A DNA stretch of 50,441 bases, from positions 1 through 50,441 of the IMG/VR virus record IMGVR_UViG_3300042540_000801; one strand, written 5' to 3'. The position numbers and the translations under genes were made by a program. Positions 353 through 28,118 of the stretch are shown in pieces. Source of the DNA: a virus (taxonomy: Duplodnaviria > Caudoviricetes). The number at the start of each line of letters is the position of its first letter. Position 1 is the first letter of the stretch. The notes beneath the pieces are model-generated. The model was given only the letters and a program-made list of their open reading frames with translations. It was not told the DNA's origin and searched no databases.

Positions 353-368
353 GGGGGTCTTCTCGCTG

Positions 369-12724: not shown

Positions 12725-12727
12725 GCT

Positions 12728-13072
12728 TCATGCCGGGACTGAGCCCGCTCCTGTCGTGTCCATGACCTTGAATGAGACCGTGTACCTCGTGACGTCGTTG
12801 ACGACTCCCTCGATGCGGTACGTCTGGTAGATGCAGTCCGCGCTCCAAGAGATGCCACCGCCTTGGATGCCGAGGACCAATCTCTTGCCGTACTGCGCCG
12901 AGGAGATGTTTGCCGTGCCGAGGCACGACACCTCTATAGTCCCGAGGTCAAGTGTCCACGGCGTCAGGCGGCCGCCCGGCAGCGAGCCGGGGCCTTCGAC
13001 GCGGATCTCGCGGACTTCTTGGAACGGGACGCTGTTCCAAGTCACAGTGACGCCAGCACAGGCGATCGCCAC
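12728..13072 (-). CDS. Tail tube-like protein, paralogue 2
   Basis: Position; shares VND..R...SFK end with the upstream gene. Confidence 0.55.
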   Translation of the reverse strand: MAIACAGVTVTWNSVPFQEVREIRVEGPGSLPGGRLTPWTLDLGTIEVSCLGTANISSAQYGKRLVLGIQGGGISWSADCIYQTYRIEGVVNDVTRYTVSFKVMDTTGAGSVPA

Positions 13073-13088
13073 GGCGCCCTCCCGCCGA

Positions 13089-13481
13089 CTATCGGGCGAT
13101 CTTGAAGGACGCCTTGCCGCGGATGATGTCGTTCACCGCGAGCGTGACGCTCGAGTTGGTCACGGTGGCCATGCCCGTGACGATCGTTGCGCCACCCGAC
13201 ACGACCGAGAGGGTGCCGGTGCTGCCGTCCGCGATGACGGCGGAGCCTTGGTAGTCGATGTCGACGACGCGGCCCGTGGTGCCGCCGTTCTGCACCGAGC
13301 CCTTGAGCGGCCGGTCCATCGTCAGCACCGACTGCCCGGCGGTCTGGCCGAGGTGGCTGATGTCGATGGGCTGGACGTTGTTGTTCTGTTCGCCCAGCGT
13401 GTAGACGATGTTGGTCACCGTGTAGCCGACGCTGGCGAAAGTGAACGTCGTGCCGGTCGAATCGTGCGGCGTTGCGGGCAT
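13089..13481 (-). CDS. Probable major tail tube protein
   Basis: Between tail terminator and chaperones; GTTFTF...IDISHL pattern. Confidence 0.65.
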   Translation of the reverse strand: MPATPHDSTGTTFTFASVGYTVTNIVYTLGEQNNNVQPIDISHLGQTAGQSVLTMDRPLKGSVQNGGTTGRVVDIDYQGSAVIADGSTGTLSVVSGGATIVTGMATVTNSSVTLAVNDIIRGKASFKIAR

Positions 13482-13482
13482 G

Positions 13483-13893
13483 CTAGGACTCCTGCCAGAG
13501 AGCGTTGTAGGTTTGGGTGACCGAGTAGCTGGGAGGCGCTTCGTTGCCTTGGAGAAGAGCGAAGCCGTCCGATTCGCTTTCGAGCGACACGTTCTTCACT
13601 TCTGTATTTTCAAGAGTCCCGCCCCACCCATCCAGAGCTTGACGGCAGAGGTCGGCGATGGTTCGCGCCTCTTCGTAGGTGACCGCGAAAATGTCCATGT
13701 CGAGGGTGGTGGTGGCCACGCCCATCGGGCCGCTGAGGGTCTGCTCGCGGCTGACACCGGTGCGGCGGTAGGTGATGTAGGGCAGGGCGGCGCTGATCGG
13801 GGCCAGCACGGGGAAGATTCGCGTGCCGATGACGGCGGCGACGGCCGTGTCTTGGATGAGCACGGATCGCATGGCGGCTTCTGGGGACTTCAT
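13483..13893 (-). CDS. Tail completion/terminator protein (DUF3168-like)
   Basis: GTRIFPVLAP....LPYITY...DIFA.TY.EA. Confidence 0.8.
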   Translation of the reverse strand: MKSPEAAMRSVLIQDTAVAAVIGTRIFPVLAPISAALPYITYRRTGVSREQTLSGPMGVATTTLDMDIFAVTYEEARTIADLCRQALDGWGGTLENTEVKNVSLESESDGFALLQGNEAPPSYSVTQTYNALWQES

Positions 13894-13903
13894 GGGAGCC
13901 TCG

Positions 13904-14572
13904 TCACTTGGTCGGGCTGATGTAGCCCTGCTTGCGGTACTCGATCTCCTTGATCGCGTTCTCCAGGCCGGTGGAGAGTTTGTCTGCGAGGATCTGGCCC
14001 ATCTGCGGCCAGGTGTCGTTGTAGGCGTTCTTGATCGGCGCCTGGGCGCGGGTCGGCCGGATGACGACGGGCTTGTTCTTCTTCATGAAGAACGCCTTGG
14101 GGTAGGCGGGGCGGGTCGTGAACGTGCCGTTGCTCCCGCTGGCGAGGATGCGGAACGGCCCGAGCGACCTGAACGAACTGGCGATGAAGCCGCCGTAGGG
14201 CGACTGCTTGGAGATGACCCGCTGGTTGGTGCCGAACTCGAGGAGGCCCTGGTGGAAGGCCCGGTCCTTGCCGGCCCGCACCTTGCCGCCCTGCGCGGAA
14301 ACGGACGGCGACTTTCCGGCACGGACGTACCCGGCCAGGGCGACGGCGTTCCCGTCCTGGGGATAGGTGACGACCTTGCTGGCGATGGCCCGCTGGAGGT
14401 TCCCGGTCGGGCCGCGCGGCGTCAGTTGCTTGAGCCGGGCGACGGCCGGCTTGATGGCCTCGCGGACGGCCGCGCCGGTGTACTTGGCCTGCAGGGCCTC
14501 GGGGAGCGTCTTGATGCCGGCCCGGGCGATGTCGAGGTCGGCGAAGTTGGCTTTGATGGCGACGACGGCCAT
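13904..14572 (-). CDS. HK97 gp10-like neck protein
   Basis: TP.GPTGNLQRAI and LEFGT motifs. Confidence 0.8.
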   Translation of the reverse strand: MAVVAIKANFADLDIARAGIKTLPEALQAKYTGAAVREAIKPAVARLKQLTPRGPTGNLQRAIASKVVTYPQDGNAVALAGYVRAGKSPSVSAQGGKVRAGKDRAFHQGLLEFGTNQRVISKQSPYGGFIASSFRSLGPFRILASGSNGTFTTRPAYPKAFFMKKNKPVVIRPTRAQAPIKNAYNDTWPQMGQILADKLSTGLENAIKEIEYRKQGYISPTK

Positions 14573-14889
14573 TAGGTGGCCTCCTGGCAGATGGCGACGT
14601 GCTCGGTGCGGTGGTCGTATTCGAGCAGGCTGACGATCTCCAGCACCCGCTCCCGCCAGACCAGCCGGCTGGCGTGGGTGAGGCTGGCGTTGTGCCGCAG
14701 CCGCACGCGGTGCGTGATGCTGGTGTCCTGTTTCCCGGCGAGCAGGGCCTCGCGGGAGGACACGCCTTCGACGCTGGCCCACACCGTGGCGACGTCCGAC
14801 CATGTGAACACCGCTTCGCCGAGCGAGTTGATGGTCTCGCTCGACGCTTGGATCGTGACTCGCTCGGTGAGGTCCCCGCTGCGGATCAT
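14572..14889 (-). CDS. Head closure protein (SPP1 gp16-like)
   Basis: GDL.ERVTIQ...W.DVATVWASVE..S.RE. Confidence 0.88.
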   Translation of the reverse strand: MIRSGDLTERVTIQASSETINSLGEAVFTWSDVATVWASVEGVSSREALLAGKQDTSITHRVRLRHNASLTHASRLVWRERVLEIVSLLEYDHRTEHVAICQEAT

Positions 14890-15476
14890 CGGTAGGCGCC
14901 CCATTTGATGCTGTCGAGCAGGGCCTTGGCTCCGAGCGGGACCTCCTGCATGCTCATCGACTCGACCGCCGACCGTTGGCGGTAGAGGTGGTCGACGATC
15001 ATGAGGATCGCCGCCTTGAGCCGCGGCTCGGGGCTCGACGGCCCCGCCCACCAACGGACGGTGATGGAGCTGTAGTCCGCACGGTACGATGGCCAGGTGC
15101 CGCCGTAGGGCGGCCGGATGGTGCCAGGGATGGCTTCGCGGTCCACGCGGTACTCGGAGGGCGGCAGCGTGGCCTGTGCGCCGGTGTCGTTGAGGCTATA
15201 GGTGACCTCGACGGCCGTGGCGGTCCCGGAGGCGAACATTGGCGGGCGGGGGAGGCGGATCTCCGCGGGGAACGTGTCGAGCTTCATGACGTACTGGGAA
15301 GGTCCCACGAAGGTCATGTCGCAGTAGCTTTCGGCGTAGGCACGAACCGTGGAGATGAGCGCCGTGAGGTAGGCGTCGTCGGCCGTCGAGTCGACGCGGC
15401 AATGGTGCTTGGCCTCGGCCAGCGTGACCGGCTCGGTGGCGGGCGTCGTCTGTCGAGTGAGGCTGCGGTAGTTCAT
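14886..15476 (-). CDS. Head-tail connector (gp6-like)
   Basis: EPVTLAEAK.H.RVD...DDAYL..LI; LKAAILMIV.HLY.QR. Confidence 0.88.
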   Translation of the reverse strand: MNYRSLTRQTTPATEPVTLAEAKHHCRVDSTADDAYLTALISTVRAYAESYCDMTFVGPSQYVMKLDTFPAEIRLPRPPMFASGTATAVEVTYSLNDTGAQATLPPSEYRVDREAIPGTIRPPYGGTWPSYRADYSSITVRWWAGPSSPEPRLKAAILMIVDHLYRQRSAVESMSMQEVPLGAKALLDSIKWGAYR

Positions 15477-16216
15477 GCCGTGGGGTCCTGCGGGATGCGC
15501 CATGAGTTTTTCGGCTTGCCGTTGGCGTGGAAGTCCGGGACGTACTGAAAGACTGGCGATTCGAGTTTGGCTCCGGGCCAGACCGCCACCCACTCGCCGT
15601 GGCCGATGGTGATGCGCGGCGATACGAAGACGCGGTTGCCGGCCTTCCGAAATTGCTTCCAAAAGTGGATGTCGGCGTCGGTTCTTCCGTCCCCGTACTC
15701 GCCTTTCTCGTTGGGTGTGTCGAGGAACCACGGCTTTGGCGTGCGGGCGAGCGCGGCGGTCGAGATGACCGTGCAGCCGAAGTGTGCGGTGTCCACTTCC
15801 TGCACGGGCTGGCCGAGCCATCGGCCGTCGACGGAGATGGAGTCGCCCTCACGGACGGCGCCGAGCGTGTCCTTGAGGGTCAGCATCGGCCTGCCGTCGT
15901 CGCGCTTGACCTGGAATCCGGTGATGGCGTCGCACTGGAAGGCCATGGCGAGGGCGAAGAGCTCCTCGATGTCACGCTGGGTGATGAATGAATCGAAGTC
16001 GAGCGTGAGGATGTACTCGCACTTATCGACCCACTCTTCCATCGTGCGCTGGAGCACTTGTCCCCAGAGTGCCCCCTGCCCGAGCGTCGGGCGGATGCCG
16101 AGCGGCATGAGGGCTTCGACCCAGCCGAAGAAGTTGGAGAGCGGGCCGAATCGGGGGCCGGAGAGAATGGCCTCGACGCGAACCTCGGCGTTCGTGTCCC
16201 CGATCTTGATGAGCAT
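15473..16216 (-). CDS. GT-A fold glycosyltransferase-like protein
   Basis: YILTLDFD (DxD), FGCTVI, DIHFW...AG.RVFV.P.I.IGH. Confidence 0.7.
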   Translation of the reverse strand: MLIKIGDTNAEVRVEAILSGPRFGPLSNFFGWVEALMPLGIRPTLGQGALWGQVLQRTMEEWVDKCEYILTLDFDSFITQRDIEELFALAMAFQCDAITGFQVKRDDGRPMLTLKDTLGAVREGDSISVDGRWLGQPVQEVDTAHFGCTVISTAALARTPKPWFLDTPNEKGEYGDGRTDADIHFWKQFRKAGNRVFVSPRITIGHGEWVAVWPGAKLESPVFQYVPDFHANGKPKNSWRIPQDPTA

Positions 16217-16238
16217 GGCGTCCTCCGTGAACAGCGGA

Positions 16239-16270
16239 ACGGGCGGCGGGCGTCCTTGCCCACCGCCCGT
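16239..16270 (-). terminator. Hairpin downstream of major capsid gene
   Basis: 13-bp stem with one G-U pair; weak U-tract. Confidence 0.45.
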
Positions 16271-16306
16271 CCTTGGGCGCTGTCACTGTGCCAGGTGTGT
16301 CAAGGC

Positions 16307-17695
16307 TCAGGTGGCGGCGGCGGCCTTGAGGGCGACCATCGGGCCGGCGACCGTGTTGGAGCCGAGGTCGTGCACCACGATCGCGTTGCGGACCGTGGCG
16401 AACGTGGCCGTCTGGTCGAACTCGATGTAGCGCTCGCTCGCCGTCTTGATCGTGACCGTGCGGCGGTCGCCGTAGGTCGCGGCTTGCGAGAGGTCTCCGA
16501 ACAGGGCGAGGCACCTGCCGCCGGTCCCCGTCAGGTCGCTTACCATCGGGTGCGCGAGGACCACGGGGAAACCGAGGAACTGGAGGTCGAAACCCCCGGC
16601 GACGTCGGCCCGCGTGTTGCCGCCGCTCTGCATGGCGAGCCGCAGCATCGAGGAGCCGTAGCCGGCGGGCGAGATGTACCACTTGGCCTGACGGCGGGCG
16701 AAGAGGGGAAGCCGGCTCACGACGTTCGTGAAGTCGGTCAGCTCGAGCGAGTCGAAGGTCGAGTTGCCCGTTGCCGCCGTGACGACCGACTTGGCGTAGC
16801 CCGAAGACAGGATCTTCGTGCAGATGCCGGTCACCGAGTGGTAGGTGCCGGTGCCGTCGCCGATGAAGCCCGCGTTGTCCACGGCTTCGGCGAGGCACTG
16901 GGCCGTCTCGACGGCGATGAGGTCGGCCAGGTTGATGACCGAGTCCTCGAACAGCGAGTTGGGGATGCGGTTTGCCACGCCCCAAATCTTCGCGTTGAGC
17001 TGCACGTTGTCGAAGGTCACGTCTGAGGGCGTGATCTCGACGTTCTCGCCGACCGGGCGAGCCGCGAGACCGCCGGTGCGGCGGGCGATGAGGAGCGTGT
17101 CGCTCGACATCGGCACCTTCCGGGCGTTCGCGACGAACGCACCGTACTCCTCCACGAGCCGGATGATCTCGGTGGAGAGCTCGTCGCTGACGAGGTAGCC
17201 GCCGAGCGAGTCGGTGCTGCCCGCCTGCGCGCGGGTCTGGACGCCGTGGTCGACGCACCACCGGCGGGCTTCGGCGTCGCCGAAGACGTAGCCGCGGAGG
17301 TGCATGCCCGAGCGGTAGGCCCGCTCTTCGGCGTTCGGGCCACGGAACGCCTTGAGGACGCCGGTGGCCTTGGGGATGGCGTAGTTGCGGGGTTCCACGG
17401 CGGGCTCCTCCTTGGTGGCGGGTGCGACGGTCTTGGCGGGGGCGGGGGCGGCCCGCTCGAGGACGGCCCGCAGTTCCTTCTCCTTCTCGGCGGCGCGCTC
17501 GTAGAAGGCGATCTTCGACTTGAGCTTCTCGGCCCGCTCGATGAGCTGCTCGAGCCGCTCGGAGTTCTGCATCGCCTCGTCGGCCGCGGCGCCGTCTTCG
17601 GCCGGAGCATCGGTCGCGCCGTCTTCGAGGGCGCCCATCTCGGCGAGGACCTTGGCGAGCTCGTCGAGCAGAACCTTGACTTGCGATGCAGCCAC
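16307..17695 (-). CDS. Major capsid protein, HK97 fold, with N-terminal delta domain
   Basis: GTG start after AAGGAG; coiled-coil N-terminus; GGYLV, GDGTG, LFGDLS motifs. Confidence 0.92.
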   Translation of the reverse strand: MAASQVKVLLDELAKVLAEMGALEDGATDAPAEDGAAADEAMQNSERLEQLIERAEKLKSKIAFYERAAEKEKELRAVLERAAPAPAKTVAPATKEEPAVEPRNYAIPKATGVLKAFRGPNAEERAYRSGMHLRGYVFGDAEARRWCVDHGVQTRAQAGSTDSLGGYLVSDELSTEIIRLVEEYGAFVANARKVPMSSDTLLIARRTGGLAARPVGENVEITPSDVTFDNVQLNAKIWGVANRIPNSLFEDSVINLADLIAVETAQCLAEAVDNAGFIGDGTGTYHSVTGICTKILSSGYAKSVVTAATGNSTFDSLELTDFTNVVSRLPLFARRQAKWYISPAGYGSSMLRLAMQSGGNTRADVAGGFDLQFLGFPVVLAHPMVSDLTGTGGRCLALFGDLSQAATYGDRRTVTIKTASERYIEFDQTATFATVRNAIVVHDLGSNTVAGPMVALKAAAAT

Positions 17696-17798
17696 GAGAT
17701 GGGCTCCTTGTGCGTGAGGACCAGCGGCATCTGCCGCCCGTTCCTGAAACCTACGCACAAGGTGGCGCGGCCATCCATAGTTGGATGGATGTTCTTTA

Positions 17799-17975
17799 CT
17801 ATCTAGTAAAGCACCGCCGCCGGATCTCCGAGGCGGGGATGACGGACTTGTCCGTCGCGCCGCACCGCGGGCAGCGCAGGTATCGCACCTGGCTGTCGCC
17901 GCGGCTCTGGCTGGAAACGACACCGAGGACGCCGCGCCTGCACGCGGCACAGGTGTCACCCGATTTTGCGGCCAT
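17799..17975 (-). CDS. Small zinc-ribbon protein (Ogr/Delta-like pattern)
   Basis: CAAC...V.SS......RYLRCPRCG. Confidence 0.65.
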   Translation of the reverse strand: MAAKSGDTCAACRRGVLGVVSSQSRGDSQVRYLRCPRCGATDKSVIPASEIRRRCFTR

Positions 17976-18987
17976 GCTGTTGGAGGAACTTTCGGATGTC
18001 GGCCATGTGCCGACGAGCGACGATGAGGCGACTGGTCGCCAACTGCCGGCCGGCGACGTGCTGCTCGTAACTGCGGCGGGCCACGCCGACGTCTGCGTCG
18101 GGGTACGCGGGGAACGTGACCGGCCCGACATCCAGCAGGCGGTCGATCCGCTTCACGATTCTGGTGGAGCGGCCTTCTTCGACCGTCCACTCTTCCCCGC
18201 CTTTTGCGATGGTGAACGCGAAACTTGAGCCACGGATGTCGCCTCTCCTGATGCTCTCGACGACGCCCTGCTGCGAGACTGGGGGCAGGACTTCGTAGCG
18301 GAGGCCGCGATCGTCGACGAAGAGCTTGAGCGTGGTCGGGTAGCGGCCGAGGACCACGTTGGGGTCGTGGTTGAACAGGGCGCGGGTCTCGAGCGGGACG
18401 CGGCGGCCACGCCGCTCGGACACCAGGCCGAAGGCGGTCGGGTCGATCCGCTCCACGAAGTCTCCGAGGTCGAGGCTGCGGACGCCGAACCGTGCCGCGT
18501 AGCCGACGATCCAATCGCGTTCGGTCTCGTCGCCGTTCTCGTCGCACTCGCAGCGGCGTTCGACGGTGAGGAGGTCGGTGGCCGTCTCCGCTTCGTCGAT
18601 GACAAGAGAGCGTCGCTCGATCTGCATGGCGTGACTCCTTTCGCCGTTGTCTGCAGCTTCCATCTGCCGGACCAGTTTCTTGGCCCACGACCAACCGGGA
18701 TCTCCGCCCCACAAGGCCCAGGCGATTCTCCCGGCGGATGGGAAGCCGTCTTCGCCGGGGGACCAGCCTTGTCCCTGCTTGTCGACTTCGTGGCGGTCGA
18801 AATAGGCCTTCATCCGCTTGGCAGTTGATGGGCTGATCTGCGTGCCGTTGCCGAGGTCGCGGGCGCGGGCCACGCCCACGGCGGTGCCGCCGCGGTTGAA
18901 CTCTTTGCGCCAGGCCAGACCGCGATCCGCTTCCTTGCGGACGCCGGCCGGCGGCGTGAAGTCGATGTGATCGTATTTCCCTGCCAT
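17956..18987 (-). CDS. HK97-type prohead protease with extra N-terminal domain
   Basis: GYAA.F, F.ERI...AF, LFNHD, GSSFAF, DVGPVTFPAY. Confidence 0.9.
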   Translation of the reverse strand: MAGKYDHIDFTPPAGVRKEADRGLAWRKEFNRGGTAVGVARARDLGNGTQISPSTAKRMKAYFDRHEVDKQGQGWSPGEDGFPSAGRIAWALWGGDPGWSWAKKLVRQMEAADNGERSHAMQIERRSLVIDEAETATDLLTVERRCECDENGDETERDWIVGYAARFGVRSLDLGDFVERIDPTAFGLVSERRGRRVPLETRALFNHDPNVVLGRYPTTLKLFVDDRGLRYEVLPPVSQQGVVESIRRGDIRGSSFAFTIAKGGEEWTVEEGRSTRIVKRIDRLLDVGPVTFPAYPDADVGVARRSYEQHVAGRQLATSRLIVARRHMADIRKFLQQHGRKIG

Positions 18988-19052
18988 GGCTTCCGTGCCT
19001 TGGGGTCTTTGTCGATGGTAGCGGCCAGAGGCCGATGCTTTGCGTGCCGCGG

Positions 19053-19295
19053 TCAGGGCGACGGCGGCGGGGGAGGAGGCGGCGAACTGGCGGTTGCTTC
19101 CTTCTCGGCGGCGACGGCCTGCCGGTAGGCTTCGTCGGGATCGACGCCGGCCAGGAGCAGGCGGGCCAGTTCCCGCATGCCGATGGAGCTTTTGAGGTCG
19201 CGGCGCCACTCGGCCAGGCCCTCCTCGCCAAACTTGACGACGCGGATGCCGGCCGCCGTGTCGACGTCTTGCTTGTCTTGTTCTTCTGGGGTCAT
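19053..19295 (-). CDS. Small hypothetical protein downstream of the effector polyprotein
   Basis: ATGA overlap with upstream stop; 80 aa. Confidence 0.6.
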   Translation of the reverse strand: MTPEEQDKQDVDTAAGIRVVKFGEEGLAEWRRDLKSSIGMRELARLLLAGVDPDEAYRQAVAAEKEATASSPPPPPPPSP

Positions 19296-21991
19296 GGATG
19301 CCACCCGATGTGCTCGAGGTCGACGAACAGCCGCGGCTTGCCGCTGATCCATCTCCATTCTTTCGATTTCAGGCGGAATTGCGAGCGGCGGGGGAGGAGG
19401 ACTTCGGCTTCGCTCTTGTGGGCGCTGATGCCTTGGATGTTGAGGCCGTACTTTGTCGTGATACGCATGGCGATGCCGGGGGCTTCTTTGTTGCCGGAAC
19501 TCCATGACTCGCCCATGTCGCGACGGGTGGAGCAGGACAGGTATCCCGTGTCCTGCCAGACGGCTCCGACAGCGAGCTTGTCGATCTGCGTGGCGACGCT
19601 GTGGCCGACGCCGCGGTAGAGGGTTTTCGTTTCGCTGTGCGCGGCGATGCGGGTGACGGCGTCGAGGGCGGCCACCTTGAGCGCGACGTGCTGCGGCATC
19701 TTGCCAAGTTCCGAGATGCTGCCGCCCGTGTTGGATTCGTACTGCCGCAATAGGTTGTTGATCTCTTTGTAGTGTGAGCCGGTGTACTGCTGGATGGCCT
19801 CCCTGGCGATTGGCATGGCCTTGATCGCGGCGGCTTGCACTTCGAGCACGGGCGGGTTGGGGACCGTGTGCTGCCAACTGTCTGGCGAGTTGGTTGGCAG
19901 CTTACCCGGTGGCGGCTTGCCGGGCGTGGCGCTGGCTCCGGCCTTCGTCGGCTCGGGCTGGACGGCGGGGGCGTCCTTGTCCGCGACGGGCTTGGGCGGC
20001 TCCTGCGGCTTGGGCGTGGACTTGGGTGCTTCCGGCGGCGGGTTGACCTTGTTGACGCCCGAGACGTTGGCGTTGGCGCCGGGCGGCGGAGGAGCGAGCA
20101 GGCCGGCGGCCATCGCCTTCTCGCCCGCGTAGATGCCGGGATCGTTCTTGAGCGCGGTCGGCGATCCGATGTTGTCGGGGTGGATGGGGTCGATGCTGTA
20201 CTGCGTGCAGAGGGCATTGAAGCTGTTGGGCGTTCCGGCGGTCTTCTCGCTGATGGCGTTCTTGAGCGTTTGCTGGGCGGCCGACTTGGCGGTCTTGGCG
20301 CTGGAGCCTTCGGTCTTGAACTTGGCGACCAGCACGCCGTAGAGCTTGGCGTGGGCGACCGTCATCATGAGGTCCTTGGGGTAGCCCTTCTTCTCCATCC
20401 AGGCACCGGCTTTCTTGCCGCTGCCGAGGGTGGCCGCGGCGTCGCCGGCGCCGCCCTTGGCGCAGGTGTTCGCCTCGCCGAAGCCGCCGGATCCCGTGCC
20501 GCAGTTGCGGGTCTCGAGCGATCGCTTGCTCTTCTTGGGATCGACCTGATCGGCGACAACCATGTAGACGCCTTCTTTGCTTTGCGTCACTGACACCACC
20601 TTGAAACTGGCTCGCCGAGTGATGTATTCCGGCTGGCTGGCTCCCTCGGAGATGTCGCGGGCGTCGACGAGCCGCGTGCGGATGATGATGCCAGTGCCGC
20701 CCGTGCCGGTTTCGTTGGGGTCCGCGTATTGCATGGCGGTCCCCTTGCTGCCGAAGGATGAGACGCCTTTGATGTTGAAGGACTCTTGCTTGATGAACGC
20801 GTCGGCGGCGTTGTTGTCGAGGATCATGCCGCGGTAGGCGAGGCCGTCGTATCGCGGCATCTTGGCGAGGGCCGATAGCAGCGCGGGGCTGGCCTTGCCT
20901 TGCTCGTCGAGTTCACGGTGCGGGGTGGCGTCGTTGGTCCAGTCCCCGATCGCGTTTTCTTCTTCGCGGGTCAGGGGGCCGGAAGCGGAAGGCCACCGGT
21001 CGCCGTCGTCGGTGCTGCCGTCGCCGCCGGCGCACTTGTTGCCCGGCTTGAATCCGCCGGCGCCGCTTCCGCAGTCGCGGGCCTCGGAGCGGGCGTCGCC
21101 GTTCTTCTTGGCCCAGGCCGCCATGTAGTCGAGCCGCGCCTTCATCGTGTCGCGGTGCTTGGCCGGGGTGGCGGCGAGGATGGCCTTGCGCCGCTTCTCA
21201 AGGCCGCCGATCTGCTTGGCGACGTCGGCATCCGAGAGCTTGCCGAAGATCGGCTTGCCTTGGTCGCTCGTCCGCATGGAGGTGATCTCGCCGACTTCCG
21301 GGCCGAACGCCTTGGGCTTGCCCTGCGCGCGGAAGTCGAGGGAGCCGCCATTGTCGATCCGCATGGGCGGGCGGCCGTCTGACGGGACGACGATGTTGTC
21401 GCGGGCCAGGCCGATGACGTCCCAGTTGGCGAGCAGGGCGTCGGCGGCGAAGTTTTCGCGGAGCGAGGCCGCGGCCTTCTCGAAGTCGCTGCCGCGGAGC
21501 TTGTCGAGGGTCGGGCCGGGGACATACTCGGTGACCTGCACCGGCTTACTGCCGGACTCGTCGAGGCGATGAGCCGGAACCGGGGCGCCGGCCGCGCGGT
21601 AGATGTCGTTGGCGGCCGACTCGCTGCGGACGTGCTCGGAGGAGTTGCCGCCCTTGATGACGAACTGGTTGCCGTTCTTGTCCTCGGCCAGCATCGCCCC
21701 GGTGGAGCCGCCGAGCCGCTTGGTGACCTTGAGCTCGCTGGCCGGCGGGATGTCGCCCTGTTTCTTGCCGCCGGGGGCATCGCCGCCGTCGCCGTCGCCG
21801 CCGGCCGCGCACTTGTTGCCGGGCTTGAAGCCGCCCGCTCCGCTGCCGCAGTCGCGGTAGGCGGCGAGCATGTCGCGGCGCTTGACCCGCTGCCGCTTCT
21901 TGAGGGCGTCGAGGATGTGCTGCGGCTTCTGCCAGCCGGGAGGAGCGAGCGAGGCTTCGGAGCCGACGAACTTGTCGAGGTTGGCGGTCAT
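19292..21991 (-). CDS. Multidomain effector: HipA/PI3K-like kinase, two VIP2-like ADP-ribosyltransferases and an unknown domain
   Basis: LGGSTGA..VIK..E..NWD..DN..IDNG; AYRG/SSFGS/QPE; LYRG/SCST/EAEVLL; three CGxGxGGF..xNxC tags. Confidence 0.8.
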   Translation of the reverse strand: MTANLDKFVGSEASLAPPGWQKPQHILDALKKRQRVKRRDMLAAYRDCGSGAGGFKPGNKCAAGGDGDGGDAPGGKKQGDIPPASELKVTKRLGGSTGAMLAEDKNGNQFVIKGGNSSEHVRSESAANDIYRAAGAPVPAHRLDESGSKPVQVTEYVPGPTLDKLRGSDFEKAAASLRENFAADALLANWDVIGLARDNIVVPSDGRPPMRIDNGGSLDFRAQGKPKAFGPEVGEITSMRTSDQGKPIFGKLSDADVAKQIGGLEKRRKAILAATPAKHRDTMKARLDYMAAWAKKNGDARSEARDCGSGAGGFKPGNKCAGGDGSTDDGDRWPSASGPLTREEENAIGDWTNDATPHRELDEQGKASPALLSALAKMPRYDGLAYRGMILDNNAADAFIKQESFNIKGVSSFGSKGTAMQYADPNETGTGGTGIIIRTRLVDARDISEGASQPEYITRRASFKVVSVTQSKEGVYMVVADQVDPKKSKRSLETRNCGTGSGGFGEANTCAKGGAGDAAATLGSGKKAGAWMEKKGYPKDLMMTVAHAKLYGVLVAKFKTEGSSAKTAKSAAQQTLKNAISEKTAGTPNSFNALCTQYSIDPIHPDNIGSPTALKNDPGIYAGEKAMAAGLLAPPPPGANANVSGVNKVNPPPEAPKSTPKPQEPPKPVADKDAPAVQPEPTKAGASATPGKPPPGKLPTNSPDSWQHTVPNPPVLEVQAAAIKAMPIAREAIQQYTGSHYKEINNLLRQYESNTGGSISELGKMPQHVALKVAALDAVTRIAAHSETKTLYRGVGHSVATQIDKLAVGAVWQDTGYLSCSTRRDMGESWSSGNKEAPGIAMRITTKYGLNIQGISAHKSEAEVLLPRRSQFRLKSKEWRWISGKPRLFVDLEHIGWHP

Positions 21992-24522
21992 GCGTTTTTG
22001 TAGTCCTCGTCTTCGTCCACGTAGAGGAACCACTTGGTGCTAGTCTTCACGGCCCGCGTGATCCGCATCTTCGACGGCGGGCGGATGACTTCGCTCTCGT
22101 CCAGGCTGTCGCGGTGGTTGACGTAGCCGACCCGCGGCGCGCGGGAGACGAGCACGACGCCCTTGTTGAACTCGCTGCCGCCGCTGAAACTGCCGGCCGT
22201 GCGGCGGGAGGTGGTCCAGCTGTTGACGCCGCTGTGCGACACGTAGCCGTCCTTGAGCAGGGCGTCGACGGCGTCGTCGTTGAGCTTGAGCCCGCGGTAG
22301 AGCTGCATGCAGCAGCCGAGCGTCGAGGCGGCCGTGCCGGCTTCGAGGACCTTGGTCATTTCGCGGATGGCGTCCTCGCGGGCCGATTCCCGCATCTGGT
22401 CGTATTCCTCTTCGATCTCTTGGGTGCGATCGGCGATCCACTCTTGCTTGACCTCTTCCTGCTCGTCTGGGGTGAGCGAATCCCACTTGTCGTTGTAGTA
22501 GTCGACTTTGTCGACGCCGTCCCACTCGCTTTCGAGCTCGTCGACTTTCTCGTTGATGAGTTGCCGCTCGGTCTCGGAGTCGATGGTCCCGTACTCCGTG
22601 CCATAGGAGTCGATGACGTCGCCGTCGGTGCCGCCGCCGCTGACGGACTCGGTGAAGTAGGCGTAGCCGTCGCCGGTGTAGGCGAGCAGCGCGCCTTCGT
22701 CGTCGGAGAGGTCGGCGTGGTCCTGCAGTTCCTTGGCGTCGCTGAAGTCGGTGACGAGCCCGCGGTCTTTGCCGTCGCCCTCGACTTCGTCGAGGTAGGT
22801 CTGGGCGTCGGTGACGCTCCGGTCGGTGACGACGATCTCGCCGCCGCCGCTCTGGACGGTCTTGGACTGCCCCTCTTCGTCGTCGCGGGCCGTGCCGGGG
22901 GAGGTCGGATCTGGCTCGCTGTCGTCGCCGCCGTCGCCGTCGTCCCCGGCGCACTTGTTGCCGGGCTTGAAGCCGCCGGCGCCAGTGCCGCAGTCGCGGG
23001 ATTCGGCGCGGGCGGCGGGTGGCGATTGGGGAGCCTGGGGCTCGCCAGGAGGGCCGCCCGGGCCGGGGCCTGGGTCATTTGTCGGGCCTTCCGGTGCGGC
23101 CCCAGGGGGCTCGCCAGGGGCTCCCGGGTGGGGCTGGGCGGGGGTGACGCCGGCCACGATGGCGGTGGCGGTGGTGCGAGGCATGGCTGGGAAGACGCTG
23201 CCGATGATCGACACGGCGGCGTCCGGGGCCACCGTCCCGGCGCCGACCTGTTCGAGGATGGCCAGCAGGCCGCCGACGTCGGCCGTGGGCTGGGCGGGCT
23301 GCTCGGCCGTGGGCTGCTCGGCGGCCTGCGGGTCGGGCTGCGGCTTGGACGCGTTGGTGAGCGTCTGCATGTTGAGCTGCACGAACCGCTCGTCGCCACC
23401 TTCGACGGGGTTGAGGTTCTCCCAGCCGCGGATCTCGTTCACGCTGGCGACGCCGAGCGAGGCGAGCGTGCTGTAGTAGCTCGCCCGGGCGCTGGCGTCG
23501 CCGCGGAGCATGCCCCGCGTGTCGAACTCGGCGAAGATGTTGTCGTCGGTGATGAGGTCGCGAGTGAACGCGGTTTCGAACCGGCGGAGCCAGCCGAGCA
23601 GGGTGTGCTGGATGAAGTCCAGGCTTTGCTGTTCGATGTTCGAGAATGACGAGCGCGTAAGGTCGCCCACGAGATGCGGCGGAACGCGAAAGATGCGGCA
23701 GATCTCTTCAGTCTGGAACCGGCGGCTTTCGAGGAACTGGCTCTCCTGATTCGAGGCGCCGCCGAGCTCGACGGGCTTGAGGCCGCCGCTGAGGACCGCC
23801 GTGCGGTTGGCCCGGTCGCTGCCGCGGTGCATCCGCTCCCAGTTGTCTCGGAGGGCGACGGCCGCCTGCTGGTCGAGCTCGTTGTCCGTGGTGAGGACGA
23901 AGCCGGGGCGGGCGCCGTTCGCGAAGAAGCTCGACCCGTGGATCTCGCAGGCGCGGGCCAGGGCGATGGCGTCGCGGGCCAGTTCGATCGGAACCATGCC
24001 CAGAACGCCGTCGTTGCTCAGCCACCGCAGGTGCATGATCTGGTCTTGCGTGTAGACCGTCTGCGACCCGTTCGGCTCGCGGTAGGTGTAGCGGAGCCGG
24101 CCGTTTTCCAGCCGCTCGCAGGCCATCCGCGAGGGGTGCAGGGGGATGAGGGCCGACACCGCGCCGCGCTTCCCGGCCCGGATTTCGTTGTAGGCGTTGC
24201 CGTGCAGGCCGAGGTGCAGCATCTGCTGCTCCCGCCACTCGAAGCTCGTCTGCCAATCGTTCGGGGCGACGTGGAGGACGTGGTAGAGCGGATGCTCGCG
24301 GGCGATCTCCTTGCCGCCGTCCGGCCGCCGGCGGTAGAGGTGGAGCGGGAGCCCGGCGACGCCCTCGGCCAGGACGCGGAGGCAGCCGAGGACCACGGTG
24401 CAGCGGAGGGCGGTGTCGGCGTTGACCCTGACCCCGGCCGCCGTGCGGCCCGAGAGGTCGTCATCCAAGGATCGGGTCTCGACGTCGCCGGGGAGCCAGA
24501 GGATGCGGTTGGGGGCGATCAT
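21988..24522 (-). CDS. HK97-family portal protein with C-terminal ADP-ribosyltransferase extension
   Basis: LHGNAY, FFANGARP, FRVPPHLVG, SNIEQQ, NEIR.WENL.P; then Pro linker, tag, LYRG/SWTTS/ESEVI. Confidence 0.9.
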   Translation of the reverse strand: MIAPNRILWLPGDVETRSLDDDLSGRTAAGVRVNADTALRCTVVLGCLRVLAEGVAGLPLHLYRRRPDGGKEIAREHPLYHVLHVAPNDWQTSFEWREQQMLHLGLHGNAYNEIRAGKRGAVSALIPLHPSRMACERLENGRLRYTYREPNGSQTVYTQDQIMHLRWLSNDGVLGMVPIELARDAIALARACEIHGSSFFANGARPGFVLTTDNELDQQAAVALRDNWERMHRGSDRANRTAVLSGGLKPVELGGASNQESQFLESRRFQTEEICRIFRVPPHLVGDLTRSSFSNIEQQSLDFIQHTLLGWLRRFETAFTRDLITDDNIFAEFDTRGMLRGDASARASYYSTLASLGVASVNEIRGWENLNPVEGGDERFVQLNMQTLTNASKPQPDPQAAEQPTAEQPAQPTADVGGLLAILEQVGAGTVAPDAAVSIIGSVFPAMPRTTATAIVAGVTPAQPHPGAPGEPPGAAPEGPTNDPGPGPGGPPGEPQAPQSPPAARAESRDCGTGAGGFKPGNKCAGDDGDGGDDSEPDPTSPGTARDDEEGQSKTVQSGGGEIVVTDRSVTDAQTYLDEVEGDGKDRGLVTDFSDAKELQDHADLSDDEGALLAYTGDGYAYFTESVSGGGTDGDVIDSYGTEYGTIDSETERQLINEKVDELESEWDGVDKVDYYNDKWDSLTPDEQEEVKQEWIADRTQEIEEEYDQMRESAREDAIREMTKVLEAGTAASTLGCCMQLYRGLKLNDDAVDALLKDGYVSHSGVNSWTTSRRTAGSFSGGSEFNKGVVLVSRAPRVGYVNHRDSLDESEVIRPPSKMRITRAVKTSTKWFLYVDEDEDYKNA

Positions 24523-26138
24523 AGGATCAGGATGTCCGGCTTCGGCGCGGTCTCGACGGGCTGGTGCGAGGTCAGGCCGCCGAGGGCCATGACGAGCGAC
24601 ACGATGCCGTCGATTCGCTTGGGTGATCCTGGCTTCGGCTTGATGGGGCGAATGTTTCCGTTGCTGTCCGTCTTGATCGAAACGTTGGAGGCCATCCATC
24701 CGAGAACGAGATTGCCCGCGTGCCTGAGCTTCTTGCTGGCGAGCAAGTTCTCAAGCATTTTCGAGGGTGGGCTCATGCTGCCGATGCCCTGAGAAAACCC
24801 TACCACTTCATGCCCGGCCCCTTGAAGTTGCAGGGCGAGCTGGGTCGCGTTCCATCTGTCGATGCAAATCTTGCGGACGTTGTAGGTCTCGGCGAAGGCG
24901 GTGATGTCCCGGAAAATGACGTCGTAGTCGGTGACGTTCCCGTCCGTGAACTTGAGGCCGTTGGCCGGGTTTTCCGCCCACTTCGTGTAGGGGACGCCGT
25001 CGCGCCGCTCGCGCTCGAGGGCGTTGTCGCCGGGGATCCAGAACTGACAGAGGACGTCGAAGGTGCCGTCCTCCGCGGGGAACACGGCGACCATCGCCGA
25101 GGTGTCGAACGTGGTGGCGAGGTCGAGTCCCACGACGCACTCCCGGCCCTTGAGCGGCCCGGGCGGCGGCAGGGCGCAGGCCTGCCAGGCGTCCATCTTC
25201 AGCCAGGCCGTATCCTGGGCGGTCCAAGAGTTGAGCCGGTATCGCTTGAAGGCGTTTTCCTTGCTGACCGAGAGCGTCGACTCCTTGAAGTCGGCTTCGA
25301 AGTCCTTGGGGTCGATGGTCTCCCGCCACGATGGGTTGGCCCGCGGCCAGAGGGCCGGGTCGGTCCAGTCGGCCGATTCCTCGACTTCGTGGATGCAGGG
25401 GAAGAACTGCGGGTCGTAGCGCCAGTCGCGGAGGACGTTCTTGGCGTACATGTACTGCTCGTAGCAGATGCTCGTGCGGTCGTAGCCCGCCGTGGTCGTG
25501 GAGCAGAGCAGCGGCTGCGCTCGAGCGGCGCCGCCGAAGCGGAGCGAGTCCCAAAGCCTCCGGTCCCGCTGGCTATGGAGCTCGTCGAACAGGCAGCCGT
25601 GGATGTTCAAGCCTTCGGCGCGGAAACTGTCGCCGCTCAGGACCCGCCAGAACGAGGCCGTCTTGCGGTAGGTGATGGTGCGGCGCGAGTCGATGACTTC
25701 GAGCACGCGGGCCAGCTGCGGTGAGGCGCGCACCATGTTGCTGGCCTCTCTGGCCACGATGGATGCCTGGTCGCGATCGCTGGCCGCCGAGAAGATCTCG
25801 GCGCCGCCCTCGTTGTCGGCCATGAGCAGATAGAGCCCGATGCCGGCGAGGATGGTGCTCTTGCCATTTTTTTTGGCGGTGCTGATGTAGGCGACCCGGT
25901 AGCGGCGCATGTCGTTGTCGACTCGCACCCAGCCGAAGAGCTCCTCGAGCATCCCCCGCTGCCAGGCGAGCAGCGTGAACGGCTTGCCGGCGAAGCGGCC
26001 CTTGGAGTGGCAGAGGTAGTTTTCGAAGAAGCGGACGACGTGCGAGCCGCGCTGCTCGTTGTAGTACCACTCAAGCCCCTGCGCTGTCGCGTCGCTCTTC
26101 GATAAACGAGCTAAGCGGGTCGTCGTGTCTGTCTGCAT
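24519..26138 (-). CDS. terL: Terminase large subunit
   Basis: KKNGKST Walker A, LFDELH Walker B, GLDLA and RIDG nuclease motifs. Confidence 0.95.
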   Translation of the reverse strand: MQTDTTTRLARLSKSDATAQGLEWYYNEQRGSHVVRFFENYLCHSKGRFAGKPFTLLAWQRGMLEELFGWVRVDNDMRRYRVAYISTAKKNGKSTILAGIGLYLLMADNEGGAEIFSAASDRDQASIVAREASNMVRASPQLARVLEVIDSRRTITYRKTASFWRVLSGDSFRAEGLNIHGCLFDELHSQRDRRLWDSLRFGGAARAQPLLCSTTTAGYDRTSICYEQYMYAKNVLRDWRYDPQFFPCIHEVEESADWTDPALWPRANPSWRETIDPKDFEADFKESTLSVSKENAFKRYRLNSWTAQDTAWLKMDAWQACALPPPGPLKGRECVVGLDLATTFDTSAMVAVFPAEDGTFDVLCQFWIPGDNALERERRDGVPYTKWAENPANGLKFTDGNVTDYDVIFRDITAFAETYNVRKICIDRWNATQLALQLQGAGHEVVGFSQGIGSMSPPSKMLENLLASKKLRHAGNLVLGWMASNVSIKTDSNGNIRPIKPKPGSPKRIDGIVSLVMALGGLTSHQPVETAPKPDILIL

Positions 26139-26574
26139 GGATCGTCACCTGAGAGCGGCTGCTGGGGGTGAGGCCGAACTCCTGCTCGATGCGGAGCAGG
26201 ATGGCGGCGAGCTTGGTCATCTGGCTGGCGTAGGGCGACACCTGGATGTGCTTGATCTCGCCTGTCGAGTCCTTGAACCGGATGACGTCGAGGCCGGCCT
26301 TGACGGCGTCGTAGTTCCGCTTCCACTGTTCCCAGATGGCGCAGTAGCGGGCGAGGGTCTCGGTGTCCGCGAGCGTCAGCACCCGCATGGCGGCGAGGAC
26401 CGGGACGGTGGTCTGCCACTTCTGGAGCGCCTGGCCCTCGAGCCAGGCCGGCGGCTCGATGTCCGGAGCCGCCAGGTCGGGCGTCGGCTCGCTCGGATTG
26501 AGCGTCCCCTTGCTGGGATTGCCGCGGATGTACTTGAGGATCGACGGTTCTGGCGGCGGTCCACGCTTGCCCAT
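26071..26574 (-). CDS. terS: Terminase small subunit (P27 family)
   Basis: MGKRGPPP..GNP.K, PPAWL, EFGLTPSSR. Confidence 0.92.
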   Translation of the reverse strand: MGKRGPPPEPSILKYIRGNPSKGTLNPSEPTPDLAAPDIEPPAWLEGQALQKWQTTVPVLAAMRVLTLADTETLARYCAIWEQWKRNYDAVKAGLDVIRFKDSTGEIKHIQVSPYASQMTKLAAILLRIEQEFGLTPSSRSQVTIHADRHDDPLSSFIEERRDSAGA

Positions 26575-26575
26575 G

Positions 26576-27655
26576 TCAGCCTCCATGCAGGATGGTGGTC
26601 TTGATGTGCGAGGCGATGGCCCGCATCAAGAGCGGCGGGACGCTGTTGCCGATCCGAGCCCACTGGTTGATGTGCGTGCCGCTGAGCGTGAAGGCGTCGG
26701 GGAAACTGCCGATCCGCTTGGCCTCCGCGATGGAGATGCTCTCGTCGAGGTCGGGGTGGAGGAGCATGCCGCGGCCGCTGGTGACCTTGGTGATGGTGCG
26801 GGATGGCTTGTTCCAGGCGAGGCGGTTGAGGTTGAAGTAGTGGTGCAGCGGATGGAACCGGCTGGCACTGCCGCCTGGCTTGGCCCGTGAGGCGTAGGGC
26901 ATTGCCTTGACGTTGGGGGTGATGCCGGGCGTGTGCTCCAGGCCGCGCCAGGCGTCCCGCACCGTGTAGGGCTGGCCGAGCGGCGCGGGGTGGCTGGGGG
27001 CGATGGGAAGGTCGGCGCGGGTGCCGATGAAGATCATCCGCTCGCGGGCCTGGGGCACGCCGTAGTACATGGCGTTCATGAGCCGGGCGCGGACGTGGTA
27101 GCCGGATTCTTTGAGTGTCCGAAGAATCTCGGCGAAGATGAGACGCATCTTGCCCTTGACCATGCCGCTGACGTTCTCCATGACGAACGCTTTGGGGCGC
27201 AGGCCCTCGAGGAGGCGGATGTATTCGCGGAAGAGTTGGTTGCGTGGATCGTCGAGCATCCGCTTGCCCGAGGTGCTGAAGCCCTGGCAGGGGGGCGAGC
27301 CGTCGAAGACGTCGAGCTCGCCGGGCTTGAGGCCGGACAAGGCGAGGGCTTTCTCGACCGTGAGCGCGGCGATGTCGCCGTGAAACAGCGGTACCTCGGG
27401 GAAGTTCTCGCGGAACTGGGCGGCGGCGTGGTTGTCCCACTCGACCGCGAGCAGTTCGCGGAAGCCGGCCATGCTGTAGCCCAGTGACGAGCCGCCGCAG
27501 CCGGCGAAGGTGCTGATGACCGTCGGCGCGTCGGCCGGCTTGGGCGCGAGGTGGTCGCGCCACGCCTGCTCGAGAGCGTCGGGGTACTCAGGCCGCGAAC
27601 TCGTGGCCGCAGTTGGGGCAGGTGCAGTAGTCAACGTCTTCCTCCACGCTTTCAT
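26576..27655 (-). CDS. DNA cytosine-5 methyltransferase (start uncertain)
   Basis: FAGCGG, GSPPCQGFS, ENV, Q.RER, IGNSVPP. Confidence 0.92.
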   Translation of the reverse strand: MKAWRKTLTTAPAPTAATSSRPEYPDALEQAWRDHLAPKPADAPTVISTFAGCGGSSLGYSMAGFRELLAVEWDNHAAAQFRENFPEVPLFHGDIAALTVEKALALSGLKPGELDVFDGSPPCQGFSTSGKRMLDDPRNQLFREYIRLLEGLRPKAFVMENVSGMVKGKMRLIFAEILRTLKESGYHVRARLMNAMYYGVPQARERMIFIGTRADLPIAPSHPAPLGQPYTVRDAWRGLEHTPGITPNVKAMPYASRAKPGGSASRFHPLHHYFNLNRLAWNKPSRTITKVTSGRGMLLHPDLDESISIAEAKRIGSFPDAFTLSGTHINQWARIGNSVPPLLMRAIASHIKTTILHGG

Positions 27656-28118
27656 CGTACTCGGTGCCACCGGCGTTCGGAGGCAGCACGAAGGTCTTGT
27701 CTGCGTCGATGACGCCGATCTTCTCGGCGAGTTGGGTGAGCATGTCGGCCACCGACTCGTTGCTCGTCTGCGTCTGATGCAGCAGGGCTTCGAAGGCGGT
27801 GGCGTTCGAGTGGGCCATGCCCGCGAGCGGATCGAGGATCGCGAGCAGCTTGTCGGACTCTTCCTCGTTGAGGTCGAGGATGAGGACCGGCACTTCTTCC
27901 TCGGGCGAAACCTCGGCGCGGAGGTGGCCGTCGATGAGCATGAGCGACCCGTCGGGAAGTTTGCGGGCCAGCAGGGCGTCCGCGTAGCCGACGTCCTCGA
28001 GGATCCCGGTGAGCGCCTTTCGCTGCGGCTCCGGGTGCGTGCGCCAGTTCTTGGGGTTGGGGATGAGCTCGCTGGCCGGGACGTAGACGAGCTGACGGAC
28101 GCGGTCGCGGATGTTCAT
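27588..28118 (-). CDS. ParB-like N-terminal domain protein with C-terminal CPxCGH
   Basis: PNPKNWRTH, LIDGHLR. Confidence 0.85.
   Translation of the reverse strand: MNIRDRVRQLVYVPASELIPNPKNWRTHPEPQRKALTGILEDVGYADALLARKLPDGSLMLIDGHLRAEVSPEEEVPVLILDLNEEESDKLLAILDPLAGMAHSNATAFEALLHQTQTSNESVADMLTQLAEKIGVIDADKTFVLPPNAGGTEYDESVEEDVDYCTCPNCGHEFAA

Follow-up and report, generated by a model that had tools for sequence, protein, structure and literature searches.

Gene order and module composition of the locus

We analyzed a cargo locus in the virus record IMGVR_UViG_3300042540_000801 (Caudoviricetes), where a single gene directly behind the portal gene encodes an 899-amino-acid (aa) chain, here called the effector, that combines a kinase-fold domain, two ADP-ribosyltransferase (ART) domains and a helical domain (domain X). 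The window covers the record in full, a virus contig of 50,441 bp with a G+C content of ~66%. The contig carries an integrase gene, a replication module and a minus-strand, siphovirus-type late operon that runs from the small and large terminase subunit genes (TerS and TerL) and the portal gene onward. The late genes are arranged on the minus strand in the order TerS, TerL, portal, effector, an open reading frame (ORF) of small size, S78 protease and capsid protein. The effector ORF had been proposed from the letters of the sequence (hereafter, the original prediction), and it is real, its exact protein being on record. The predicted position of the gene between portal and protease holds with respect to the HK97-type portal upstream (Pfam Phage_portal, E 6.5e-107, residues 102-428 of 903) and the S78 protease downstream (Pfam Peptidase_S78, E 1.9e-30; TIGR01543, E 2.3e-21), but an 80-aa ORF lies between the effector and protease genes. 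Both the portal/effector and the effector/small ORF junctions are ATGA overlaps. In total, three ARTs and one kinase are encoded at the locus, spread over two translationally coupled genes.

The kinase-like domain of the effector contains a Gly-rich loop LGGSTGA (residues 93-99), a Lys in FVIKGG (110-115), and the motifs LANWDVIG (187-194), DN (198-199) and IDNGG (212-216). We aligned the window copy with sequences from 39 of the 66 IMG/VR loci that were found to encode this domain by a locus search. Among these 40 sequences, the near-invariant columns are the Gly-rich loop, the Lys, a Glu, LANWDVIG, D-N and R-I-D-x-G-G; conservation of K, E, D-x7-N and D-x-G-G is 90% or more, up to invariance. 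The AlphaFold2 (AF2) model built on this alignment reached a predicted local distance difference test score (pLDDT) of 93.7 and a predicted template modeling score (pTM) of 0.90. When the model was compared with 48,161 chains using VIA-align, all 50 matches listed were kinases, headed by CtkA (Z 12.7, root-mean-square deviation 3.6, 197 aligned residues) and followed by PI4KIIalpha (Z 11.8), Rio1 (11.7), CotH (11.6), Rio2 (11.4), actin-fragmin kinase (11.2) and HipA (11.1). Foldseek comparison with the PDB also retrieved kinases only, among the matches listed. At the level of the predicted structure, the bilobal kinase fold and the affiliation with the protein kinase-like superfamily are confirmed.

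By sequence, the kinase domain matches nothing in Pfam (E up to 10), PHROGs or NCBIfam, and the 40-sequence profile gave no match to PDB sequences; therefore, its identity as a kinase is known only by fold comparison. CtkA of H. pylori, PI4K type II alpha, Rio1, CotH, actin-fragmin kinase and HipA have the bilobal fold in common with it over ~160-205 aligned residues (Z 11.1-12.7), whereas their identity to the window kinase is 9-18%. The original description of the domain as a HipA/PI3K-like kinase is thus correct for the superfamily, as judged from the AF2 model and VIA-align, and not for the family: there is no Pfam match, and CtkA, PI4KII, Rio and CotH score at or above HipA. Membership in the HipA_C or PI3_PI4_kinase families was rejected, given no match to these Pfam profiles and the many folds that score alike.

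Searching BFVD with the kinase model retrieved, at 61% identity, an uncultured phage's 'portal protein' of 1201 aa, as well as large proteins of the Gordonia phages GodonK and Sixama and of the Mycobacterium phage Onyinye, the last being annotated 'ADP-ribosyltransferase'. By tblastn, the domain was located in 20 phage records, every time over query residues ~81-291. In Gordonia phage Phendrix it is part of gp66 (1479 aa), which is encoded directly behind portal gp65, and in the Pseudomonas phage Dolphis it is part of gp117, annotated 'ADP-ribosyltransferase'.

Both ARTs proposed for the effector were recovered by profile comparison. The C-terminal ART matches Pfam ADPrib_exo_Tox (PF03496) over residues 730-892 with E 3.6e-14 (53 bits versus a cut-off of 23.4) and Pfam ART with E 9.8e-7. 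Its closest solved relative is HopU1 (PDB chain, E 2.7e-7), followed by Vis (E 0.0029), and the predicted R-S-ExE triad (LYRG, S-C-S-T and E-A-E) is confirmed in its sequence. For the middle ART, which had been assigned an R-S-QxE triad, we used a profile of 13 sequences composed of the window copy and 12 of 19 relatives from an exhaustive HMMER search of 1.84 billion representatives. This profile matches the Vis NAD+:arginine ART (4xzj) with E 2.9e-12 and with the YRG, S-x-S and E-x-E motifs aligned. It also matches the chains 6dre/6drh ('PAAR repeat-containing protein', E 2.3e-4), which we take to be a type VI secretion ART toxin. Across this family, R-G, S-F and a single Glu show little or no variation; E-x-E is present in 6 of the 13 members, and the window copy has Q-P-E, with the catalytic Glu kept. 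By itself, the window copy of the middle ART has no Pfam match, and its sole match is PHROG 16619, 'minor head protein'. Single-sequence locus searches with the middle ART and with domain X plus the C-terminal ART retrieved almost solely one near-identical contig, L069.

A third ART was found at the C-terminus of the portal protein. This domain aligns with the middle-ART profile in hhalign (probability 95.9%, E 6.2e-9), the R, S and E motifs being aligned; by itself it has no Pfam match. ExE ARTs generally act on Arg, and QxE ARTs, of which C3 is one, act on different residues. Vis of Vibrio splendidus, HopU1 and the C3-like exoenzymes have the R-S-E ART core in common with the window ARTs, including the aligned YRG, S-x-S and catalytic Glu. 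These relatives are secreted toxins, whereas the window ARTs belong to phage head-module proteins and the middle copy is of the QxE type. All of the original domain assignments that lent themselves to a check proved correct. As originally noted, no MuF domain is present: neither the effector, whole or domain by domain, nor the portal gave a Pfam match to PF04233 or PF06152.

The helical domain and the Pro-rich linker behind it were also found as described. Domain X is modeled by AF2 with pLDDT 82.4 and has no fold match: the top Z in the wide PDB comparison was 4.3, BFVD gave its own homologue alone, and there was no match in Pfam. An ESM Atlas lead toward a PPIC-type peptidyl-prolyl isomerase was weak (score 0.91 with just 116 shared features) and was not trusted. 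Domain X and the C-terminal ART occur together in the loci L157/158, L215/216 and L156. Since X always accompanies that ART type and the junction tag described below is absent between them, we treat domain X, the Pro-rich linker and the C-terminal ART as one module.

A conserved tag at the junctions between modules

The junctions of the locus are marked by a 15-residue element, the tag, with the pattern R-[DN]-C-G-[ST]-G-x-G-G-F-x-x-x-N-x-C, in which the R stands just ahead of the tag. A regular expression (regex) search found four copies: one in the C-terminal extension of the portal and one before each of three modules of the 899-aa protein. A hidden Markov model (HMM) of the tag, built from 128 instances in other phages, gave exactly four matches in the six frames of the window, with scores of 28.8-35.3 bits, and the next best match scored 2.1 bits. 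The four tags of the window are not a product of chance. In homologues of the effector, each module is likewise set apart by a tag.

Using a degenerate DNA pattern, we found the tag in at least 140 stretches of IMG/VR. Among 185,579 species genomes it was found in 15 stretches, which belong to Planctomycetota, Verrucomicrobiota, an actinobacterium, Neisseria and proteobacterial metagenome-assembled genomes. The 60 longest of at least 124 distinct tag-bearing IMG/VR ORFs were scanned with Pfam. They comprise 35 portals of three Pfam families (HK97, lambda and Mu types), 2 MuF proteins, 3 prohead proteases (one with the order S78-tag-Zeta toxin), 1 PARP-like protein and 19 proteins of no family. 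The genes just 3' of tag-bearing ORFs encode an S78 protease in at least 9 loci, a Mu-type protease in at least 1 and a MuF protein in at least 4. Several positions that were not imposed by the search pattern are strongly conserved among the matches listed (136 instances), namely T at +2, A/S at +4, G at +10 and P/E, followed by a Gly-rich run. A full-text literature search for literal tag strings retrieved no paper.

The tag is present in 5 of 80 capsid-related loci. The assumption that it is bound to one capsid/protease clade was rejected on this count.

In L187 the tag links a Zeta-toxin kinase domain to an S78 prohead protease, and in L084 it links such a domain to an HK97-type portal; on the strength of these two fusions, the tag joins very different cargo to different head anchors. 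In L306 and L307, two nearly complete phages with lambda-type portals, HExxH domains follow the tag (HELGHH and HHEIGH). By analogy, these domains may recall the zincin-like peptidases that are proposed to process polyvalent proteins in the available text of PMC5512222. In L281 (positions 1-370, minus strand), a further cargo gene follows the small ORF and begins with a very short leader and then the tag (MNDNFVDLQK-DCGSGAGGF...); its start resembles that of the window leader (MTANLDKFV...).

The residues ahead of the tag were compared with the major capsid protein, the full 457 aa of which are matched in 78 relatives. Its delta domain of ~98 residues is a coiled coil and ends at V-E-x-R, the Arg of which is kept in the window and in all 78 relatives and is followed by [YF]A[VI]PK. 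The E-x-R ahead of the tag matches V-E-x-R at this presumed cleavage site and is a candidate cut site in this clade, as far as the sequences indicate. A second capsid sub-lineage has K-E-x-R ahead of SVxIYH, and its tags follow x-x-R. We also compared 26 distinct tag instances that were reached by homology rather than by the search pattern: all have D or N right before the Cys, 23 have R at position -2 and 16 have E at position -4. The motif E-x-R-[DN] occurs four times in the portal, effector, protease and capsid proteins (2602 residues together), three times at tags and once at the delta boundary, versus a mean of 1.33 in shuffled sequences (P = 0.047). In other lineages the tag is the same, with upstream residues that are typical of the lineage: E-T-E-L or E-E-R-F alongside lambda-type portals and K-P-K-G alongside Mu-type portals. 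This pattern fits a putative combination of a lineage-specific cut site with a universal tag.

Features of the locus, with positions in the 50,441-bp window
Feature	Position	Strand	Basis or remark
Effector gene, 899 aa	19292..21991	-	ATG over portal TGA as ATGA; identical protein P0002 on record
N-terminal leader, residues 1-46, basic helix	21854..21991	-	Conserved in P0003; 100% identical in L069
Tag 2, effector residues 47-61, after A-Y-R	21809..21853	-	Regex; tag HMM 32.0 bits
Atypical protein-kinase-fold domain, residues ~78-300	21092..21760	-	Alignment conservation, AF2 model, fold searches
Tag 3, effector residues 306-320, after S-E-A-R	21032..21076	-	Regex; tag HMM 32.0 bits
Middle ART, residues ~335-485: R in AYRG 385-388, SSF 411-413, Q-P-E 453-455	20537..20989	-	Family profile
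Tag 4, effector residues 496-510, after L-E-T-R	20462..20506	-	Regex; tag HMM 28.8 bits
Helical domain X, residues ~525-635	20087..20419	-	AF2 model; constant companion of C-terminal ART
Pro-rich linker without tag, residues ~636-715	19847..20086	-	Translation; start of recombined block
C-terminal ART, residues 716-899: LYRG 791-794, S-C-S-T 819-822, E-A-E 861-863	19295..19846	-	Pfam, HopU1
Portal gene, 903 aa: HK97-type core, Pro-rich linker, tag, acidic stretch, C-terminal ART	21988..24699	-	Pfam Phage_portal
Tag 1, portal residues 569-583, DCGTGAGGFKPGNKC, after A-E-S-R	22951..22995	-	Regex; tag HMM 35.3 bits
Portal-borne third ART, residues ~660-903: LYRG 800-803, SWTTS 827-831, E-S-E 868-870	21991..22722	-	hhalign; N-terminal limit estimated
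80-aa ORF, ATGA overlap with effector stop	19053..19295	-	Conserved after same ART type in L069, L158, L216, L281
Prohead protease gene: N-terminal extra domain and HK97-type S78 protease	17956..18987	-	Pfam, TIGR01543; start 18987 estimated
Major capsid protein, ~98-residue delta (scaffold) domain ending V-E-P-R before NYAIPK	16307..17680	-	Pfam Phage_capsid

The small ORF and exchange of the terminal cassette

The 80-aa ORF is kept in the near-identical contig L069, and diverged copies lie directly 3' of the same ART type in L158, L216 and L281, so that it follows this ART type in all five loci that cover the 3' end of the ART and the following DNA. Its family profile found no copy in the other capsid-clade loci, 51 of 78 of which cover more than 2 kb upstream of the capsid gene. 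The ORF has 15 database relatives, all of them unnamed, and no Pfam match, hence no known immunity family. From its co-occurrence with this ART type and the joint exchange of the two described below, we consider it a candidate cognate partner of the C-terminal ART, either an immunity protein or a chaperone. Its most likely role is to hold this ART in check within the producing or lysogenic cell.

The contig L069 is 96.7% identical to positions 12154..27269 of the window, and this identity is uneven. Synonymous divergence (dS) between the two amounts to 0.72 for the Pro-rich linker, 0.57 for the C-terminal ART and 0.75 for the small ORF; the kinase, middle ART, portal core, protease and TerL have values of 0.006-0.03. 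The block from the Pro-rich linker to the small ORF was therefore imported by recombination as one unit. Its ratio of nonsynonymous to synonymous divergence (dN/dS) of 0.2-0.27 indicates that the swapped block is under purifying selection. In the portal, the part most diverged from L069 (84.7% aa identity, dN/dS 0.85) is a strongly acidic, Asp/Glu-rich stretch between the tag and the ART core (residues ~585-760; 22420..22947, minus strand). The mature part of the capsid protein (16310..17380, minus strand) has dS 0.33 and 89.9% aa identity to L069, with the delta domain and the protease nearly identical; by sequence, it looks like a second recombination patch, apart from the ART cassette.

The corresponding slot is variable in the clade. 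The portals of 21 relatives range from 479 to 980 aa, 10 of them carrying Hva1_TUDOR and 1 a Zeta toxin, and some relatives have extra ORFs ahead of the protease gene. The cargo thus appears to be accessory and exchangeable. The Hva1_TUDOR domains lie on the portal C-terminal extension, with no enzymes there, in L072, L094, L096, L099, L109, L113, L114, L116, L118 and L129.

Proposed delivery as capsid cargo and competing explanations

Among 21 homologues of the effector, the same polypeptide includes a Phage_portal domain in six, a Phage_Mu_F domain in six and a PF06152 domain in one. One of these relationships is displayed by P0004, in which portal, tag, kinase, tag, domain X and ART form a single 1176-aa chain. 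The view of the original prediction that the locus encodes a virion-delivered arsenal of enzymes is thereby partly supported, the support being comparative. We regard it as probable that the locus provides capsid cargo of the polyvalent-protein kind, which is injected together with the DNA to modify host proteins.

What the sequences show are the domain identities, the tags, the order of the genes, the fused relatives and the exchange of the cassette; how the cargo is packaged, cleaved and injected, what it acts on and what the small ORF does we infer as follows. The 899-aa polyprotein would be made late and translated directly after the portal. The portal-borne ART would enter the procapsid by its covalent attachment, and the 899-aa chain would enter via its 46-residue leader, the tags or both; the leader, which has no family match in Pfam, is a candidate capsid-targeting peptide. 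The modules would then be parted at the tags, the likeliest cutter being the S78 prohead protease, acting after the Arg of E-x-R, and would be expelled with the DNA into the next host. There, the atypical kinase would phosphorylate and the three ARTs would ADP-ribosylate host targets, the ExE copies modifying Arg and the QxE copy maybe another acceptor. The purpose could be host takeover or blunting of defences prior to any phage gene expression. In the producing or lysogenic cell, the small ORF would serve as a cognate inhibitor or chaperone of the last ART.

The experimental precedent for a packaged ART is T4 Alt, an R-S-E ART of late synthesis that enters the head, is trimmed there by the prohead protease gp21 and, once injected, modifies host RNA polymerase. 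The locus has a PHROG 'Alt-like' match (E 5.1e-5), and the homology is distant. Alt is a single enzyme, whereas the window has several modules, and the protease belongs to a different family (S78). The T4 targeting peptide is removed at L-x-E; here, in contrast, the conserved tag would stay on each released module.

The closest likeness in architecture is to the polyvalent proteins (Iyer et al. 2017, PMC5512222), which, according to the available text, combine unrelated enzyme domains in one polypeptide among virion late genes, show fusions of these domains to portal or MuF in relatives, and are predicted, like the present effector, to be packaged and injected. At this locus, a kinase fold, two ARTs and domain X are joined within one 899-aa chain, the gene is a late virion gene, and 13 of 21 homologues bear portal or MuF-type domains. 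In the same text, ARTs are the commonest protein-modifying domain of polyvalent proteins, and the kinase described, a truncated Ser/Thr/Tyr kinase that has His and Asp, comes mostly from the Verrucomicrobia-Chlamydia group and Bacteroidetes. By that main-text description, the window kinase is set apart as a different atypical family (LANWDVIG...DN...IDNGG) without a Pfam model. We found no mention of the Cys-Gly tag in the available text of PMC5512222, in which the words 'linker' and 'cysteine' are absent. Fusions of ARTs and other enzymes to MuF, the portal and the capsid-processing protease are already described and predicted to be head-packaged in the available texts of PMC5512222 and PMC9503650. 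The locus is accordingly a variation on the known strategy of polyvalent proteins, ART-head fusions having been described before.

Several observations weigh against this interpretation. The phage is known from an uncultured 50.4-kb contig alone, and its 899-aa protein is neither fused to a head protein nor equipped with a MuF domain, so that capsid entry would rest on the 46-residue leader. The catalytic roles of the conserved kinase residues are assigned by analogy, and the middle ART, in which the first Glu of ExE is missing, could have low activity or a different specificity. Other points concern the proposed cut site. The enrichment of E-x-R-[DN] given above is marginal, the first effector tag follows A-Y-R instead of E-x-R, and the other four tagged relatives of the capsid clade keep the Arg alone constant. 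An R or K stands ahead of just 61 of 136 IMG/VR tags, among the matches listed. In two nearly complete phages with lambda-type portals, the tags come after E-T-E-L, E-E-R-F or similar residues, and no convincing site matching them was found in the protease/scaffold or capsid proteins. Finally, the conservation of 15 residues across phages with S78, XkdF-type and Mu-type proteases far exceeds what a protease site would need, and the tag must therefore do something besides, or instead of, being cut.

This last point leads to a possible, if doubtful, alternative for the joint: the tag would be not a protease site but an element that processes itself by cutting the invariant [DN]-Cys bond, or else one whose two Cys dock free cargo to the tagged portal, with E-x-R being incidental. 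Such a role is consistent with the D or N found right ahead of the first Cys in every one of the 26 unbiased instances and with the strong conservation of the unimposed T, A/S, G and P/E positions among the 136 listed matches. It would also agree with the occurrence of the tag alongside at least three types of protease and three portal families, and with its position near the N-terminus of free-standing cargo proteins. However, the 15 residues offer no assignable fold, catalytic residue or metal site, the full-text search for literal tag strings gave no precedent, and the lineage-specific upstream residues resemble protease specificity. Moreover, the alternative bears on the mechanism of the joint alone and not on the nature of the cargo.

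Taking these observations further, we tentatively suggest that the tag, [DN]-C-G-T-G-x-G-G-F-x-P-G-N-x-C, might be a universal, lineage-independent joint for cargo and a self-contained processing or docking module. Any enzyme could perhaps be plugged by it onto proteins inside the procapsid (portals of three unrelated families, MuF and the prohead protease) or onto a short leader, and each module might then be released with the tag at its new N-terminus. If this is true, the tag would be a natural portable signal for loading into the capsid and release. It would also be a marker for injected effectors, including the uncurated kinase family, across uncultured phages.

The portal-borne third ART, the repeated tag, the small ORF linked to the last ART and the position of the effector gene in the slot of MuF toxins all go beyond the original prediction. 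This slot keeps in play an explanation that differs from capsid cargo for host takeover, namely a phage-borne polymorphic toxin-immunity system that resembles MuF toxins without MuF. The ARTs and the kinase would act as toxins that reach competing or superinfected bacteria through virions or upon lysis, the small ORF would protect lysogens, and the main benefit would lie in competition rather than in host takeover. The available text of Jamet et al. 2017 (PMC5576092) describes MuF toxins as encoded immediately 3' of the portal gene in temperate phages, with C-terminal toxin-type domains, including ARTs, and then a small ORF as a possible immunity gene. The window shows the same arrangement, with the effector gene directly after the portal gene, a temperate phage and a small ORF next, but it lacks the MuF domain and has four enzyme modules across two genes, not one toxin. 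The carrier role seems to be taken here by the portal itself and by the leader with its tag, in place of MuF.

We consider the toxin-immunity explanation unlikely, even though it would account for the integrase of the phage, for a gene in the very slot, immediately 3' of the portal, that defines MuF toxins, and for the small ORF, which follows this ART type in five of five loci, is found in none of the other capsid-clade loci, 51 of 78 of which reach more than 2 kb upstream of the capsid gene, and was exchanged together with the ART as a single cassette. The match of the middle-ART profile to 6dre/6drh points in the same direction. Against it stand the absent MuF domain, the restriction of a linked small ORF to the last of the four enzyme modules, the lack of a known immunity family for this ORF, and the presence of the same kinase in similar proteins of large phages that appear lytic. 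The explanation is compatible with virion delivery and so differs from the capsid cargo interpretation mainly in purpose.

It is highly improbable that the modules are unpackaged late enzymes acting in the producing cell in the manner of T4 ModA/ModB, on targets such as the translation or packaging machinery or defence proteins, with the tags as flexible linkers or recombination joints: the gene does lie within the late operon, the polypeptide has no head-anchoring domain, and ARTs beside packaging genes might counter immunity aimed at portal or terminase (available text of PMC9503650), but relatives carry these modules in covalent fusion with portal, MuF or prohead protease, which places them inside capsids, and the portal of this very phage bears a tag and an ART.

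By injecting ready-made enzymes, a phage can intervene in the host while none of its own genes has yet been read. To this known strategy, the capsid cargo interpretation of the locus would add three elements. The first is a widespread kinase family without a curated model, found in the head cargo of Gordonia, Mycobacterium and Pseudomonas phages and of uncultured viruses, which is a candidate injected kinase. The second is a short conserved tag at the joints between head anchor and cargo, which offers a handle on loading and cutting and a search key for injected effectors. The third is an ART that is exchanged with its linked small ORF as a cassette and ties head cargo to the logic of toxin-immunity systems.

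Three further observations concern the genes around the effector. A heptamer C_AAA_AAC lies two codons ahead of the portal stop (21991..22005, minus strand), and the effector frame is open from 22033. As an idea only, a -1 frameshift at this heptamer, which is not a canonical slippery site, would yield a portal-effector fusion as in the relatives. The 5' part of the protease gene (18640..18987, minus strand) encodes a domain of ~110 residues, MAGKYDHIDFTPP...WGGDPGWSWAKK, which has no Pfam match and is matched over residues 5-112 by phrog_2859 (unknown function). The phrog_2859 domain is also present inside the portal-fused polyvalent protein P0011 and in the cargo of L306 and L307, and it may be another cargo module, with the protease as its carrier. 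Finally, a gene for a C-5 cytosine DNA methyltransferase (26576..27670, minus strand; Pfam E 7.8e-60) is located directly upstream of the small terminase gene.

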